Assembly (NCBI GenBank): GCA_964635275.1 | Contig: CAZWPN010000003.1 | Span: 800 to 64,799, forward strand | DNA from: an uncultured Victivallales bacterium | Lineage (GTDB): Bacteria; Verrucomicrobiota; Kiritimatiellia; UBA8416; CAZWPN01 | Direction: 5' to 3' | DNA length: 64,000 nt | Part shown: positions 2,770-60,140 of the stretch, one piece after another | Layout: each line of letters starts with the position of its first letter | Position numbering within the stretch: position 1 is the stretch's first letter | Position numbers and translations under genes: made by a program | Notes under the pieces: model-generated | The model's database searches: none | What the model was told of the DNA's origin: nothing | What the model saw: the letters and a program-made list of their open reading frames with translations, nothing else

Positions 2770-3294
2770 CTACTTCTTATCGGTATCGGCACCGGCCGGT
2801 GGCACGACGGGTTGCGACGGCGGGGCATTCTCCTTCTTCATGCCGGACATATCAACCACGCGCGGACGAACGCTATGGGGCGGGGCGATACGGTAACCGT
2901 CCACCTTGAGGAGCTTGTTGGTGGCGCTGCCTTCGATCTCTTCGACAATCTTGCCGATGATCCGGACCCGTTTGTCGGTCGCAATCTCGGCCATTTTAAG
3001 GGACTGTTCATCCAGTTTGATGGCGTGAGACAGCTTCTCGTTGACGACCAGGTCCATCTTTACGATCTTGTTGCCGGTGTCCCTCTCAACCTTCAGTGTT
3101 CCCGGGTATCCCGGCAGTGCCGACAGCCGTGGAGTGGTTGTGGGTGTCGGCGGGGGAACAGTTTGTTGCGGGACAACCGGCGCGGCAACTACGGCGCTAT
3201 TCGGGGCTGGTACGGTTGGATCCACGGGCTGTTGGGCCAGAAGCAGGGTGGGGGTCATAGCGGCGATGCAGAGAATAACATGCGCGGTCTTCAT
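2770..3294 (-). CDS. Hypothetical secreted protein with Pro/Thr-rich linkers around a small beta-rich domain
   Basis: Signal-peptide-like N-terminus (MKTAHVILCIAAMTPTLLLAQQ), GGAGG RBS upstream, natural-looking composition. Confidence 0.75.
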   Translation of the reverse strand: MKTAHVILCIAAMTPTLLLAQQPVDPTVPAPNSAVVAAPVVPQQTVPPPTPTTTPRLSALPGYPGTLKVERDTGNKIVKMDLVVNEKLSHAIKLDEQSLKMAEIATDKRVRIIGKIVEEIEGSATNKLLKVDGYRIAPPHSVRPRVVDMSGMKKENAPPSQPVVPPAGADTDKK

Positions 3295-3388
3295 TCAGGT
3301 TCCTCCGTATGGTGTTGCTTGCGATAGTCCGTCGCGGCGCCCGTCACTGAGAGTATTAGCTTGCGCTCCGACAGTAAAGCGTATTATC

Positions 3389-6300
3389 TCACTTCCTTCG
3401 ACGCGGCGACGAGAGGTACTTGGCCAGGATTCCTGCCGTCCACGAGCGGCTGGGTGGGGCGCTGGTCAGATCTTCAGGGGTTCCGGCGGCAACAACCTCG
3501 CCGCCGCTCTCGCCGCCGTCGGGACCCATGTCAATGATCCAGTCCGCCTCTGCCATCATGTCGAGGTTGTGCTCGATCACGACAACTGAATTGCCGGCGT
3601 CCACCAAGCGATGGAGAACGCGGACGAGTTTCTCGACATCCGCCATGTGCAGACCGATGGTCGGTTCGTCCAGAACGTACAGCGTCCCTCCGTTGCCGGA
3701 ACGATTTGCTCTTCCGGCTTTTGACAGGGAGACGCTCTTTTGTGACCGTTCCCGGGATGGCGGGCTCTGGAGGCTCTGGTGCTCTGGAACGGCGGAACGG
3801 CCAGATCGGCAACGGGCCAGTTCGGTCACGAGTTTGATACGCTGCGCCTCGCCTCCGCTCAGAGTTGGACTTTGTTGCCCCAGTTTCATGTAGCCCAGAC
3901 CAACCTCTTGTAGCAGGCGAAGCGAACTGTGGATCGGGGGCTGTGAGGCAAAGAAGACGGATGCCTCGTCCACGCTCATCGCCAGAACCTCGGCTATTGA
4001 GCGTTCCTTGAAAAGAGCGCCTAGCGTGTCGGGCGTGAATCGCCGTCCTTCGCAGACCTCACAGGGAACGGTAACATCCGGAAGGAAACTCATTTCTATG
4101 CGGCGGACGCCCTGGCCTTCGCATGCGTCGCAACGTCCGCCGGGCACATTGAAGGAGAACCGTGCCGGGCCGTAGCCGCGCAGGCGGGCCTCGGGCGTTT
4201 CCGCGAACAGTCTGCGGATGTCATCCCAGAACCCGACATAAGTTGCGGGACAGGACCGTGGCGTCTTGCCGATCGGAGTCTGGTCGACCTCCATGACACG
4301 GTCGACGCCTTCGTGTCCGAGCAACGCGTCGCATCCGACGACTTGTACGCAGGCCCGTCTGGTTCTGCGGCCTGCGCTACGCGCCTGCCTGTGCAGGGCT
4401 GACAGTGATCCATGCAGGACGTTACGGACCAGTGTGCTTTTTCCGCTACCGCTGACCCCGGTGACACAAACCAGGCGGTTCAGCGGGACGGGGATGCGCA
4501 GTGCCTTTAGGTTATGCATCCGGGCATTCACAACGGTCAGGCATGGCCCCGTAACATGACCCTCCGGAGTCCGTTGGACGGGACGGCGTCCGCCCGTGAG
4601 CGGGTGCTTCATGGGATTCCTGAGGCAGCGGCCCGTGAGCGACTCGGGATGCCGGAGCAGGGTTTGAAGCGATCCCTGGCAGACCACCCGGCCGCCGTCG
4701 ACGCCTGCGCCGGGCCCGAGGTCAACGATATGGTCGGCTCGTCGTATTGTTTCCTCGTCGTGCTCGACGAGTATCACGGTGTTCCCATGGGTCTGGAGTT
4801 CGTGCAGGGTATCCAGCAGCAGACGGTTATCCCTTGGGTGGAGTCCGATGGTGGGCTCATCGAGGATGTAGCATACGCCGCGAAGATTGGATCCCAGTTG
4901 CGATGCCAGACGGATTCGTTGCGCTTCGCCGCCGCTTAGGGTCGGTGCCGCACGATCCAGCGTCAGGTAGGGCAGTCCGACCCTGGAGAGAAACTCGAGG
5001 CGCGAGTGAATCTCCCGGACGATGTCGCGTCCGATTTCGGATTCCCCTGGTTCAAGGGCGAGCCGGTCGAAGTATTTCCGCGCGGCGTCAACCGACAGGG
5101 CCGTGATGTCGGCTATGGATGCCGTCCGGAAGGTGACGGAAAGTGCTTCTTCGCGCAGGCGTCGGCCATGGCATGACGGGCACGCTGTTTCGGCACCCTC
5201 CCACCAAGCGTTCCAGGCGATTTCCTCGCCTGTCTGTTCCTCGTCAAACCCCGGCAAATGGAGGCCGGTTCCGAAGCACTTCTGGCACCATCCGTGCCGG
5301 GAGTTGAACGAGAAGAGGCGCGGATCCATTTCGGGGAAGTTGCGGTGGCATCCAGGGCACGACCGGTGGATGGAGTAGAATGCCGGGGCCGGGCTCAGGC
5401 GGCTGCCCGCGCTGCCTGCGCCGCCATCGGGCACGGCCATTATCGCACCGCGGCCGAATTGCAACGCAGATCCCAATAGTACGCGCAACTCAGCCTCGTA
5501 TTCGGGCGCGGCGCGGACGCGGCCTACCGGCAGCTCGATATTGTGCTCGCGGAAGCGGTCCAGCCGAGGCCATTTCCCGGTCGGAATCATGGCGCCATCC
5601 ACTCGCAAGTGCCGGTAGCCCTTGGACAATGCCCAGGCGGCAAGGTCCGTGTAGAGGCCCTTTCGTGCGACGACAAGCGGCGCCAGCAATGCGACGGGGC
5701 GGTTGAGCCATGTTTTCATCAGACTCGCTAGAATGGCGTCTGGCGTCTGCGGGCGGATGGCTATCCGGCAGTCGGGGCAGTGCTGGATGCCGAGTTTAAC
5801 GAACAGAAGGCGAAGGAAATGGTATATTTCGGTGGTCGTAGCGACGGTGCTCTTACGTCCGCCCCGGCTGGTTCGTTGTTCGATTGCCACGGTTGGGGGG
5901 ATACCGAATATGGCGTCTACGTCTGGCCGGCTCGCCGGCTGGACAAACTGCCGGGCGTAAGCGTTGATCGATTCCAGGTATCGGCGTTGGCCCTCGGCGA
6001 AGAGTATGTCGAATGCCAGTGTGCTTTTCCCGCTGCCGCTGATTCCGGTAATAACGGACAGTGCGTTGAGGGGCAAGGTGACATTGATGTTCTTCAGGTT
6101 GTGCTCGCGGGCGTTATGGACACGGATGACCGGATGCGTTTGCCGGGCCTTCTTCTCTGCTGTATTGCTTCCGTCTCCGACGGAACAGGGCGGGGTGTGC
6201 ATACCACGCAGAGCCGTGCCGGTGTGGCTTTGCGCGCAGGCTGCCACGTCGATAGGAGTACCCTCGCAAACAAGATATCCACCCGCATCGCCACCTTCCG

Positions 6301-58336: not shown

Positions 58337-58474
58337 CTGATAGTTGTATCTTTTGGTACACATGCCATGAAGAGAAACGAGCCGGGGCAGCAGGAAAGGT
58401 TCTTCAATGTCGGCGCTTCCGGGTTTAGAGTGGGTAGCCCCAATATCTTGTGGTCCAAGAAGTCGAAATCGTGA

Positions 58475-58544
58475 AAGTGGGTCGGTTAAGGGTATCCGAG
58501 TAAGTGGGTCGGTTAAGGGGGCGTGTAAGCGGGTCGGTTAAGGG
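58475..58544 (+). repeat. Left-arm tandem motif AAGYGGGTCGGTTAAGGG x3
   Basis: Copies at 58475-58492, 58502-58519 and 58527-58544. Confidence 0.9.
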
Positions 58545-58565
58545 CGAGAGAAGGATGTTGTGGCG

Positions 58566-59315
58566 ATGACGGAACCATTTGGACATGAGAAGTTGATCGT
58601 CTACCAGAAGGGCATGCGTTTCGTTGTCCTCCGGGGGGCGCTGCTGGAGCAACTGCCTCGGCGAGTGGCGGCATGCGATCATCTGGAGCGTGGCGCGGAG
58701 AGCATCCTGCTCAACATCGCTCACGCCAGTAGCACATGGTCTGCGAACGAGCGGATCGTATACTTGGGACATGCCAACGGTTCCGCCTTGGAGTGCGCGG
58801 CCTGCCTGGATGTACTGGCCGCCAAGAACCTGCTGGGCGTGGACGAAGTCCGCCCTGGCAAGAGCATCCTGGCCGAGATCGTCTGCATGCTCATCACGAT
58901 GCGCAAGACGGCCGCCAGCAGGGTTTGTGAAGACCATGCGGGTTATCGGACGAGAATGGGGCGACTATTCGATCATGAGGACCTGGACGTCTATCAGGCC
59001 GCCATCCAGGTTGTCGCCTGGCTTGAGACGTTTTGGGGTGTGGCTTCCTGCAGCGCCGATCTGCGAACGAAGCTCGACAAGTCGACGACCTCGATCGTTC
59101 TCAACATCGCCGAGGGCAATGGTCGCTTTACGGGCCATGATCAGGCGGGGTTCTACGAAACCGCCTACAAGGCCACCATCCAGTCGGCATCGCTTGTCGA
59201 TCTTGCCACCGCAGACGGCGTCGCTGACGTGGCGCGAGTGGAAGCGGGCCGCGAACTGCTCCGCCGGATTGCGGCCATGCTCACTGCACTCTCCAAGGTG
59301 GCAGCACATGCTTGA
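58566..59315 (+). CDS. Tandem (two-domain) four helix bundle protein (TIGR02436 / 23S-IVP / bAvd-like)
   Basis: Domain 1: FGHEKLIVYQK...AESILLNIAHA...SALECAACLD. Domain 2: FDHEDLDVYQ...STTSIVLNIAEGNGR. Start ATG 58566 or GTG 58560. Confidence 0.85.
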   Translation: MTEPFGHEKLIVYQKGMRFVVLRGALLEQLPRRVAACDHLERGAESILLNIAHASSTWSANERIVYLGHANGSALECAACLDVLAAKNLLGVDEVRPGKSILAEIVCMLITMRKTAASRVCEDHAGYRTRMGRLFDHEDLDVYQAAIQVVAWLETFWGVASCSADLRTKLDKSTTSIVLNIAEGNGRFTGHDQAGFYETAYKATIQSASLVDLATADGVADVARVEAGRELLRRIAAMLTALSKVAAHA

Positions 59316-59328
59316 CACACTTCATCGT

Positions 59329-59380
59329 ACCCTTAACCGAACCCTTAACCGCGCCCCTTACTCGGATACCCTTAACCGAC
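59329..59380 (+). repeat. Right-arm tandem motif ACCCTTAACCG x3 (reverse complement of the left-arm core)
   Basis: Copies at 59329-59339, 59341-59351 and 59368-59378. Confidence 0.9.
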
Positions 59381-59462
59381 TCGCTTAATCGACATGACAG
59401 CAGGAGGAGCGACACAACATGTTGGGCTACCCACACCAAACCCGGAAGGACCAGATTCTTCA

Positions 59463-60140
59463 ATGTCAAAACGTACCGACATGACCCTTATGCCCATCCA
59501 TGGCGTTGTCTTCGATATGGATGGGGTTCTTTGTGACTCGGAGCCCTTCATCTGTGAAGCGGCCATGACGATGTTCCTGAGGCAGCATGGCACGCGTGTG
59601 GTTGCGGAAGACTTTGCGCCTTTCGTCGGAGCGGGTGAGAACCGTTACCTGGGCGGGGTGGCGGAGAAATACGGACTGGCGCTCGACCTTGAGAGGGACA
59701 AGAAGGCAACCTACGATATCTACCTGGAAATCATCCGGGGCCGCCTGCAGCCCCTTCCGGGTGTGCGGGAGTTCATACAGCGATGTCGTCAACTTGGTCG
59801 TCGCCTTGCGGTCGCCACCAGCGCGGACCGCGTCAAGATGGACGGGAACCTGAAGGAAATCGGGCTGTCGCCAGAATTGTTCGACACCTGCGTGAACGGC
59901 CTGGAGGTGGCGCGCAAGAAGCCGTTCCCGGACATTTTTCTGGAGGCATGCCGCCGTCTGAACCTGCCGCCGGCGGAGTGCCTGGTGGTGGAGGACGCGA
60001 CAAACGGGATTCGCGCGGGCAAGGCTGCCGGATGCCGGTGTCTTGGACTGACAACCAGTTTCAAAGCCGAGGCGCTCCTGGCGGAGGGGGCGGACTGGAT
60101 CGCGCGCGACCTTGCCGATGTGCCGGATGTCCTGAGGTGA
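59463..60140 (+). CDS. HAD superfamily hydrolase (beta-PGM/CbbY-like phosphatase)
   Basis: FDMDGVLCDSE, VATSA, RKKPFPDIF, VVEDATNGIRAGKAAG; start ATG 59463, 59481 or 59490. Confidence 0.92.
   Translation: MSKRTDMTLMPIHGVVFDMDGVLCDSEPFICEAAMTMFLRQHGTRVVAEDFAPFVGAGENRYLGGVAEKYGLALDLERDKKATYDIYLEIIRGRLQPLPGVREFIQRCRQLGRRLAVATSADRVKMDGNLKEIGLSPELFDTCVNGLEVARKKPFPDIFLEACRRLNLPPAECLVVEDATNGIRAGKAAGCRCLGLTTSFKAEALLAEGADWIARDLADVPDVLR

Follow-up and report, generated by a model that had tools for sequence, protein, structure and literature searches.

The 1,041-bp stretch at 58412-59452 of the window, meaning the whole 64-kb stretch of DNA that was analysed, is most likely a copy of a cassette family of PVC-group bacteria that is mobile and apparently non-autonomous. 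It would have inserted, in the orientation of a HAD hydrolase gene (HAD), into the AT-rich spacer before that gene, duplicating 15 bp that include the HAD start codon. HAD would still be expressed, presumably by translation from the duplicated ATG 59463 and/or from ATG 59481 with the help of initiation signals that the cassette supplies in its right arm, and the old SD-like motif would now drive only a short junction ORF. Taken as a whole, this reading is given a probability of roughly 55%. The features on which it draws are collected in Table 1.

The insertion with its target duplication, including the HAD ATG, is confirmed as far as comparison of ends and flanks allows. The direct repeat on the two sides of the cassette spans -10 to +5 of the start codon, and its copies, AGGTTCTTCAATGTC (58397-58411) and AGATTCTTCAATGTC (59453-59467), match at 14 of 15 positions and abut both terminal inverted repeats, GGCGCTTCCGG... 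and ...CCGGAAGGACC; a match of this kind at two fixed positions has a calculated chance probability of ~4e-8. A preliminary description of this DNA, all coordinates of which were verified against the sequence, had reported a duplicated 12-mer containing the ATG. Both copies of this 12-mer, TTCTTCAATGTC, are present (58400-58411 and 59456-59467) and exact copies occur nowhere else in the window, but the repeat is longer than was claimed. The sequence around the two one-mismatch copies (9204 and 51721) is unrelated. The same cassette ends recur in unrelated flanks elsewhere (the sister loci), and the identical cassette protein, P0060, is found in at least two different contexts, with a single cassette copy in the 64-kb window.

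Excision of the cassette in silico gives the junction GGAAAGGTTCTTCAATGTCAAAACG. There, HAD would begin at the first ATG that follows a stop in its frame, and an SD-like motif precedes this ATG by 7 nt. To call this a textbook initiation site, as the preliminary description did, is an overstatement. With SD strength expressed as the pairing energy with an assumed canonical anti-SD, the motif AGGAAAGG (58392-58399) pairs at -5.6 kcal/mol, compared with a median of -3.4 and a 5th percentile of -8.4 for random 22-mers of the window. Its statement that the cassette sits at the HAD start codon and parts it from its old RBS is upheld by the duplicated ATG and by the 1,056 nt that the insertion places between AGGAAAGG and the HAD reading frame, and the left ATG 58407 does open only a short ORF (44 codons, unconserved among the sister copies). 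Neither the orthologues of HAD nor those of the upstream PPDK-like gene yielded an empty allele, and the pre-insertion state is therefore only reconstructed. The closest HAD orthologue (97% identical, locus L036) bears the cassette, a different gene lies upstream of the next (89%, L037), and orthologues of the PPDK-like gene are at most 67% identical.

Table 1. Features of the cassette and its junctions, in window coordinates.
Feature	Position	Strand	Remark
Putative ancestral SD-like AGGAAAGG of HAD, cut off from the gene by the cassette	58392..58399	+	7 nt before ATG 58407
Left target-site duplication AGGTTCTTCAATGTC with ATG 58407-58409	58397..58411	+	abuts left terminal inverted repeat
Junction ORF, 44 codons, from old SD and ATG through left arm	58407..58541	+	not conserved in sisters
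Left outer arm with terminal inverted repeat (GGCGCTTCCGGGTTTAGAGTGGGTAGCCCC...)	58412..58446	+	MFE fold: pairs with 59419-59448
Left inner arm, three modules containing GGGTCGGTTAAGGG	58470..58544	+	repeat search
Cassette ORF, 249 aa (251 aa from GTG 58560), PF05635 / TIGR02436	58566..59315	+	
Right inner arm, CCCTTAACCG modules complementary to left inner arm	59329..59391	+	repeat search
AGGAGGAG, strongest SD-like site near HAD	59402..59409	+	poorly paired internal loop in predicted long stem
uORF, 21 codons, stop overlaps ATG 59481 (ATGA)	59419..59484	+	
Right outer arm with terminal inverted repeat ...CCCGGAAGGACC	59419..59452	+	contains SD-like GGAAGGA 59444-59450
Right target-site duplication AGATTCTTCAATGTC with ATG 59463-59465	59453..59467	+	L036 version is AGATTATTCAATGTT
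HAD-IA hydrolase gene, 225 aa from ATG 59463	59463..60140	+	Pfam, NCBIfam; alternative in-frame starts 59481, 59490

The right arm of the cassette stands at this very site in L036 too, and the divergence of the L036 orthologue from HAD (dS 0.35, dN 0.022, dN/dS 0.06) indicates that HAD has kept its function despite the cassette; judging from these substitution patterns, an insert of 1 kb at the start codon has been tolerated over substantial divergence. L036 has kept ATG 59463 as well as its frame; the gene-caller form of HAD (P0121) starts at 59490. Homology, as far as the sequences go, cannot fix which of 59463, 59481 and 59490 is the true start: the number of residues ahead of the DxD motif ranges from 3 to 17 among HAD orthologues, and comparison with L036 shows three non-synonymous and no synonymous changes in codons 1-10 of HAD. 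A resemblance between the N-terminus in L037 (MSALSG) and that of the junction ORF (MSALPG) is not significant, the same score being reached by 50 of 500 shuffles. Gene callers disagree on starts beside cassettes more than once, at 59463 or 59490 here and at 3880 or 3910 in L003, and given such disputed starts, recognising these cassettes would help annotation pipelines.

Two signals in the right arm may serve HAD. The first, the terminal GGAAGGA, lies 12 nt upstream of ATG 59463. In its favour, genes of the window do rely on GGAG-type SDs; these typically stand at 7-10 nt, however, and the longer spacing speaks against the preferred reading. In L003 and L022 the same motif precedes the host ATG by 5 and 6 nt, the L022 gene being that for PII, with a Pfam match that begins at residue 1; the presence of the motif in close relatives may simply reflect common descent. 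The second and stronger signal is AGGAGGAG, which pairs at -10.3 kcal/mol (within roughly the strongest 2% of the background for the window), is conserved in L036, and is followed by ATG 59419, so placed that the uORF would end on the in-frame ATG 59481 and could pass ribosomes on by termination-reinitiation. A 1-nt indel puts the homologous arm ATG of L036 (L036:68) in the reading frame of HAD (L036:113). Against the preferred reading, neither the uORF nor its SD is present in L003 or L022. ATG 59481 and ATG 59490 have no SD-like site of their own (+0.4). Of the three routes by which the preliminary description had HAD spared, a replacement RBS or translational coupling is the one to gain comparative support, from the GGAAGGA of L003 and L022 and the in-frame arm ATG of L036.

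Folding of the RNA, both whole and as 3' fragments, and of the reconstructed empty site addressed whether these signals are accessible. Partition-function folding gives a probability of being unpaired of ~0.9 at 59402-59405, and GGAAGGA and ATG 59419 are both base-paired in the predicted stem; these predictions do not discriminate, because most of the reconstructed empty site is likewise predicted to be base-paired. Co-transcription of the cassette and its neighbours is probable, as a scan found no promoter- or terminator-like site within it and 18 of 21 sister insertions point the way of the downstream gene; the long stem would then have to be opened, whether by RNase III or by ribosomes translating the cassette ORF and the junction ORF.

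The cassette ORF encodes two tandem four-helix-bundle domains of the "23S rRNA IVS protein" family (PF05635, E = 1.3e-24, in two stretches; TIGR02436, E = 4.9e-20). The protein has 3,095 homologues, the best 69-91% identical, and with a dN/dS of ~0.12 against L001, L003 and L021 it is the product of a conserved gene under purifying selection. No relative was found in viral contigs, a PDB sequence search returned nothing, and the literature retrieved assigns no function to this very large family. Inverted arms of ~140 nt enclose the ORF and are built from GGGTCGGTTAAGGG / TATCCGAGTAAG modules that have a conserved TAAGGGT core in common. They are predicted to form a long stem (MFE -506 kcal/mol; 58416-58545 with 59320-59448) composed of an outer helix of 29 bp and an inner one of roughly 70 bp, of which the stretch 58416-58446 with 59419-59448 is nearly perfect. 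Rfam gave no family match in 20 sister loci or in the cassette region, where a single sub-threshold SAH-riboswitch hit (E = 0.15, far short of the gathering score) was taken as chance.

It is possible, if doubtful, that HAD is instead freed in the manner of intervening sequences (IVSs), with RNase III cutting both helices in the PPDK-like/HAD transcript and leaving a HAD mRNA whose 5' stub exposes the SD-like motifs of the right arm. The predicted stem with its nearly perfect outer helix, the co-orientation of the cassette with its neighbours and the want of a promoter- or terminator-like site of its own are in keeping with this, as is the ORF, whose family has its founding members in RNase III-excised 23S IVSs with inverted repeats (PMC4990558). 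The right arm is also more conserved than synonymous sites, with five substitutions and one indel relative to L036 in ~105 nt, compared with differences at 47 of 168 synonymous HAD sites. Selection at the RNA level is, however, weakly contradicted by the arm mismatches of 23 copies, among which there is no excess of G:U-compatible over A:C-type (52 vs 46, p = 0.6); most are transversion-type, and the result is only weakly negative because mis-registration of modules inflates that class. Further, the arms keep conserved asymmetric mismatches in place of compensatory changes, modules with a TAAGGGT core would fit protein-binding or DNA-level repeats equally well, and no Rfam family was matched. 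The suggestion in the preliminary description that splicing as in 23S IVSs might rescue the gene fails on a different point: such IVSs are excised without ligation, so that the old RBS would not be rejoined to HAD. Processing by RNase III is nevertheless plausible on the predicted fold and is compatible with translation from arm-borne signals as an added step, in which case HAD expression would depend on RNase III.

Around 30 independent sister insertions were found in PVC-group metagenome bins, the named relatives being in Lentisphaerae, Kiritimatiellia and Verrucomicrobia bins, and all lie outside rRNA (Rfam on 20 loci). Automatic delimitation of their ends, by MFE folding and iterated local alignment, over-extends into GC-rich flanks and was replaced by motif-anchored manual curation. 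The left end of the cassette is also present in L003, L022, L033 and L001, and terminal inverted repeats of the same sequence in L003, L011, L022, L033 and L058. Target duplications are AT-rich and 8-15 nt long, with exact abutting examples in L011 (ACAAATAG, 8 nt) and L025 (TAAAAAATG, 9 nt), a decayed one of ~12 nt in L022 and none in L003; in L015 a flank of roughly 250 nt is duplicated. The family includes ORF-less mini-derivatives (L058, L006) and tandem cassettes (L057), and an IS110 gene beside L052 is apparently a separate insertion into an arm.

The expectation that homologous cassettes also sit at gene starts was borne out, in that 18 of the 21 sister insertions with an identifiable neighbour are co-oriented with the downstream gene, and the right end lies 3, 4, 9 and 10 nt from the start codon in the closest relatives. 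Targeting of translation-initiation regions as such, which the preliminary description had proposed, holds as a strong bias towards sites just 5' of co-oriented genes but is inseparable from a preference for AT-rich targets combined with selection, which is a live alternative to true start-codon targeting. This alternative is part of a second rival for the locus itself, according to which the cassette inserted by AT-rich preference and survived where harmless, HAD initiation, at 59481 or 59490, needs no SD, and the duplicated ATG is incidental; closeness to start codons would then follow from the AT-rich tracts of GC-rich genomes together with purifying selection. The true right flanks, which average ~34% GC against ~60% GC for the loci, and the AT-rich composition of the recognisable duplications agree with such an account, as do insertions directly after a terminator T-run (L033), after a stop codon (L025) and beside convergent genes (L006, L010 and L015), the choice of 59490 by the gene caller and the fast evolution of the first 10 HAD codons. 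It sits less well with the in-silico empty site and its SD-like motif at 7 nt, with the want of any SD-like site whatever at 59481 or 59490, and with the retention of ATG 59463 and its frame in L036. Moreover, in spacers of 60-100 nt or more (the window, L003 and L022) the insertion lies at the start-codon end, which is not a random position, and an ATG occurs within 15 nt in 7 of 14 right flanks, whereas an estimate from composition would predict ~3. A neutral leader insertion is on this evidence somewhat unlikely.

Split SD/AUG sites bridged by small hairpins occur in phage T4. With this precedent, and with arms predicted to pair right up to the duplication, the remaining route of the preliminary description, in which paired arms would bring the old SD (58392-58399) to the new ATG (59463) and rebuild the site across the hairpin base, is nonetheless very improbable, as the closed stem leaves 12 + 10 unpaired nt (~22) plus the helix end between SD and AUG, far beyond the 7-10 nt of the window, the old SD is itself predicted to be paired (probability unpaired 0.13), the left flanks of L003 and L022 have no SD-like motif, and a 1-kb insert with a roughly 100-bp stem is without known precedent for this mechanism.

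Beyond the single locus, it is tentatively proposed that these elements form an undescribed PVC-group family of IVS-type hairpin cassettes, which would insert into the initiation regions of protein genes, carry a portable RBS/start module in the 3' arm and perhaps be cut by RNase III. If true, this would be an mRNA counterpart of the rRNA intervening sequences, with the host gene restarting from inside the element. In the literature searched, the four-helix-bundle IVS family is known only from rRNA IVSs and, as Avd, from DGRs, and the locus and its relatives present the same kind of gene as a hairpin cassette travelling outside rRNA. Were the arm signals or RNase III processing to be confirmed, the cassette would be a mobile element whose insertion supplants the host RBS, and would offer a testable handle on the role of these proteins and arms.

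Several known systems resemble the cassette in part. Neisseria Correia elements and enterobacterial ERIC sequences have terminal inverted repeats and target duplications, lie near gene starts, form hairpins in transcripts shared with adjacent genes and can affect downstream expression. The cassette shares with them the terminal inverted repeats, target duplications and intergenic positions near gene starts, as well as the existence of ORF-less mini-derivatives, but the full cassette carries a conserved protein gene under purifying selection, and its duplications vary in length (8, 9 and 15 nt) rather than being fixed. Terminal inverted repeats are shared with TIR-type or MITE-like elements in general; the ~30 different insertion sites are spread over metagenome bins, and the only ORF of the cassette is that of the four-helix-bundle protein. 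Integron cassettes are similar in their promoterless ORF, imperfect inverted repeats, co-orientation and tandem occurrence (L057), but here the sites are dispersed in the chromosome with target duplications, no integrase is found among the called neighbours and no attI nearby, and the arms stand on both sides of the ORF without evident attC core motifs.

Avd is a nucleic-acid-binding four-helix bundle. It is linked to the same family through the PF05635 / S23 ribosomal protein name used in DGR papers (PMC10053308), but unlike in a DGR, no reverse transcriptase stands beside the cassette in the window or in the sister neighbour lists, the only one seen (L057) being of the group II intron maturase type and encoded on the opposite strand.

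The 23S IVSs that bear S23p, or four-helix-bundle, ORFs are found in Leptospira and Coxiella burnetii (PMC4990558). They lie inside the 23S rRNA gene (helix 9, 25 or 45), whereas the cassette occupies the start codon and mRNA leader of the HAD gene, downstream of a PPDK_N-like gene, with no rRNA in the cassette region or the 20 sister loci according to Rfam. Its ORF is a tandem two-domain one of 249 aa, its arms consist of ~140 nt of repeated modules compared with a 28-bp stem in Coxiella (PMC4990558), it shows target duplications, and its processing is only predicted, whereas the IVSs are excised by RNase III. The likeness lies in an ORF of the same family (PF05635 / TIGR02436), in complementary termini that form a predicted stable stem and in a sporadic distribution that looks horizontally spread, and in both cases an IVS-type element appears to be tolerated because the host product still functions.

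The insertion of a cassette at the start of the HAD-IA hydrolase gene (HAD, 59463–60140, + strand), and its long-term tolerance by the host, are well supported. When the window sequence was re-read, all of the features listed in the preliminary description were found where it had placed them, including a 12-mer direct repeat, but the true length of this repeat is greater, at 15 nt. Its copies, AGGTTCTTCAATGTC (58397–58411) and AGATTCTTCAATGTC (59453–59467), are identical at 14 of 15 positions and adjoin both element ends (GGCGCTTCCGG... at 58412 and ...CCGGAAGGACC at 59452), a match with a chance probability of ∼4e-8 at two fixed positions by our own arithmetic. The exact 12-mer occurs at only two sites in the window, and two further matches with one mismatch are unrelated sequence. 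Removal of the cassette in silico gives AGGAAAGG-TTCTTCA-ATG-TCA-AAA-CGT. This rebuilds an SD-like motif and an ATG, as had been described, but to call the site "textbook" was generous, as the pairing of this old SD (-5.6 kcal/mol, canonical anti-SD assumed) is not extreme for the window, in which random 22-mers have a median of -3.4 and a 5th percentile of -8.4 kcal/mol. Genes in the window do use GGAG-type SDs, with a spacing of 7–10 nt.

There is one cassette copy in the window, with a G+C content equal to that of its flanks. A simple scan of the cassette returned no sigma-70-like promoter or intrinsic terminator, and no Rfam family matched within it. Purifying selection acts on the cassette ORF (dN/dS ∼0.12 against comparison loci L001, L003, and L021).

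Features of the cassette, and gaps from element end to start codon in copies whose outer right end is intact
Feature	Position or locus	Size or gap	Remarks
Cassette	58412–59452	1,041 bp	
Outer arms	58416–58446 / 59419–59448	∼29 predicted pairs	two single mismatches
Inner arms	∼58470–58544 / 59329–59391	three modules each	modules with GGGTCGGTTAAGGG or complement
Cassette ORF	58566–59315, or from GTG 58560		between the arms; two tandem PF05635 / TIGR02436 four-helix-bundle domains
Gap	L003	3 nt	
Gap	L022	4 nt	PII; Pfam match from residue 1
Gap	L011	9 nt	
Gap	window	10 nt	
Gap	L007	∼15 nt	
Gap	L058	19 nt	
Gap	L013	20 nt	
Gap	L029	27 nt	
Gap	L005	33 nt	nuoJ

For the cassette protein, 3,095 homologues were found; the top 120 are 69–91% identical and share the same ∼249-aa tandem architecture, and the few with names belong to Lentisphaerae, Kiritimatiellia, and Verrucomicrobia bins. 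Across the ∼60 loci surveyed (∼30 different insertion sites), like element ends were found again in unrelated flanks, with the window-type end GG(C/T)GCTTCCGG...CCGGA(A/G)G..CC in L003, L011, L021, L022, L033, and L058, and a second type, ..TCTTCCGCAGAATCTGTGGGT...ACCCACAGATTCTGCGGAAGACCC, in L013, L014, L023–L025, L029, L056, L057, and L059. Exact duplications adjoin both ends in L011 (ACAAATAG, 2486 and 3502) and L025 (TAAAAAATG, 544 and 1690), a decayed one of ∼12 nt is present in L022, and the cassette ends of L003 have no target duplication. An identical protein, P0060, occurs in at least two different neighborhoods, and contigs break at the element. No rRNA was present in any of the 20 cassette loci scanned.

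Several family members are rearranged. At L015, a ∼250-nt stretch of host DNA from the 3' end of a PHO4-type phosphate transporter gene stands on both sides of the cassette (3275–3524 and 4613–4860, 86–88% identity), a duplication far exceeding the 8–15 nt of other copies. L057:105–1260 is a tandem pair in which the first right end (...GCGGAAGACCC) is separated only by ATTATG from the second left end (GTTCGTCTGCAG...), and a gene for a group II intron-type reverse transcriptase/maturase follows downstream on the opposite strand. ORF-less miniatures, in which the left arm is fused directly to the right, occur nested next to or within the right arm of a complete cassette in L058 (934–1197, ∼264 nt) and L006 (∼4803–5000); the former ends 19 nt upstream of a gene resembling that of a type I restriction-modification S subunit. 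At L060:2375–2419 a second-type cassette is interrupted in its right outer arm, after ...CACAGATTATTC, by a window-type left end (GGCGCTTCTGGG...); the target resembles that of the window (AGGTTCTTC), a hint that one element can insert into another or that a weak target motif is common to them. In place of the left outer arm, L021:35–63 and L052:2353–2381 have the same sequence, CCCATTCTCGCGGAGCCGGGGGCTATGAA...; the proteins of these two cassettes are only ∼76% identical. Immediately upstream in L052 is a transposase gene of the IS110 family, and cassette arms may be targets of an IS110 element. L003 has an extra inverted repeat outside the cassette ends (2809–2846, GAGAACCACGGATAGACACGGATG..., vs. 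3894–3918, ...CCATCCGTGTTTATCCGTGGTTCTC), which prolongs the hairpin as far as the opening codons of the signal-peptide gene downstream. The strains of L038, L042, and L044 are 100% identical in flanking genes and cassette ORF and differ only in the arms, L042 in left-arm module copy number and L044 in the right arm or flank, which makes the arms hot spots of length variation. At L001:2851–3814 (same site in L002, L016, and L020), a 90%-identical cassette has kept the left outer arm and lost the right; the reading frame of the glycoside hydrolase (GH2) downstream stays open as far as the truncation point, with GGAAGGAAG before the called ATG.

The age of the insertion is evidenced by L036, where a 97%-identical HAD orthologue (P0122) is preceded by the same right arm with the same end point, followed by AGATTATTCAATGTT, indicating that the insertion predates the split of the two lineages. 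Between them, HAD shows a dS of 0.35 and a dN of 0.022, and has therefore remained functional in the presence of the insertion. Over ∼105 nt of the right arm there are 5 substitutions and 1 indel, compared with differences at 47 of 168 HAD synonymous sites, so the arm is either constrained or homogenised. No empty allele was found among the orthologues of HAD or of the upstream gene examined; orthologues of the PPDK-like gene upstream reach at most 67% identity, and L037, with an 89% HAD orthologue, has a different upstream gene. The L037 HAD N-terminus might conceivably be the remnant of a former cassette end, but the likeness of L037:106–130, ATGTCAGCGTTATCCGG (MSALSG), to window 58407–58432, ATGTCGGCGCTTCCGGG (MSALPG), is not significant and is probably due to chance, as 50 of 500 shuffles score equally.

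The HAD start cannot be fixed by homology. Between 3 and 17 residues precede the G-[VI]-[VI]-FDMDG motif among orthologues, the first 10 codons differ from L036 by three non-synonymous and no synonymous changes, and gene callers place the start at 59490 (P0121) or at the equivalent of 59463 (P0122). As the ancestral start, 59463 is favored by its context in the reconstructed allele, where no other in-frame ATG would come between it and the preceding stop codon and where an SD-like motif would lie at 7 nt, and by the lack of an SD-like site at 59481 and 59490 (+0.4 kcal/mol).

The position of the family relative to neighboring genes bears on whether it targets translation-initiation regions, as had been proposed. 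The downstream gene is co-oriented with the cassette at 18 of the 21 sites with an identifiable neighbor (14 on the strength of gene calls or Pfam matches, the other four from ORF reading alone; binomial probability vs. 0.5 ∼7e-4, own arithmetic) and convergent at L006, L010, and L015. In the closest relatives, with gaps of 3–10 nt, the prediction that cassettes sit at start codons was borne out. In the window, L003, and L022, insertion was at the start-codon end of the spacer, which is 60–70 nt in the first two, while L022 has no gene for at least 100 nt upstream. Counter-examples are L033, beginning right after a terminator T-run, L025, after a stop codon, and the L057 tandem pair. Targeting of AT-rich DNA combined with selection explains much of the family's positions: recognizable ends are flanked by AT-rich DNA, with true right flanks averaging ∼34% GC vs. 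∼60% for the loci. An ATG is present within 15 nt in 7 of 14 right flanks, with ∼3 estimated from composition.

Of the routes by which HAD could be rescued, a replacement RBS with translational coupling has comparative support. On the ORF strand, GGAAG is invariably present in the right terminus, since the left terminus is CTTCC. GGAAGGA lies 5 nt upstream of the host ATG in L003 and 6 nt upstream in L022, the left flank of which has no SD-like motif; in the window it is 12 nt before ATG 59463 and equal in strength to the displaced site (-5.7 kcal/mol). The strongest SD-like site is AGGAGGAG (59402–59409, -10.3 kcal/mol), 9 nt before ATG 59419, which opens a 21-codon ORF ending ATGA on the in-frame ATG 59481. 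In the right outer arm, an indel of 1 nt (GGGACTACCC vs. GGGCTACCC) distinguishes L036:51–115 from window 59402–59467 and brings the homologous arm ATG of L036 into frame with HAD (L036:68 to 113). The extra base is common to L003, L021, L022, and L036, relative to which the window state is therefore derived; the SD-ATG pair itself is missing from L003 and L022. In both states, ribosomes entering at the right arm would arrive at HAD, and we infer that rescue may proceed through this right-arm RBS and coupling.

Translation could also act on the stem, as the junction ORF (58407–58541, 44 codons), with the old SD and ATG intact, would be translated through the entire left arm and could open the stem co-translationally, an arrangement specific to the window copy. 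RNA processing had been suggested as a further route, and the predicted arm helices are ideal RNase III substrates. IVSs are excised without religation, so that excision could only expose right-arm signals and not restore the old RBS. Arm mismatches are G:U-compatible in 52 cases vs. A:C-type in 46, which is no excess, and conserved asymmetric mismatches are retained between left and right arms; a DNA- or protein-level constraint fits the TAAGGGT core common to all module variants equally well. Precedent for RNase III comes from the ORF-bearing rRNA IVS (PMC4990558). Re-use of the old SD by arm pairing is unlikely, the closed stem leaving ∼22 unpaired nt and a helix end between SD and AUG. Thermodynamic accessibility estimates do not discriminate between these routes. 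Overall, the earlier observation is confirmed and its interpretation partly supported, with the mechanism of HAD rescue, and possible true targeting of initiation regions, being what we infer.

A full-text literature search, of incomplete coverage, found no description of cassettes of this kind in mRNA leaders, and PF05635-type proteins appeared there only in rRNA-IVS and Avd/DGR works. Transcribed MITEs share inverted ends, duplications, closeness to genes, and ORF-less derivatives with this family, but the cassette has a conserved gene and a variable duplication length, and no transposase was identified. Of known systems, the ORF-bearing 23S rRNA IVS comes closest, sharing the protein family, terminal stem, and sporadic spread. 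The cassette is not, however, located in rRNA, the defining feature of an IVS, and it therefore behaves as an IVS-type element would without being one.
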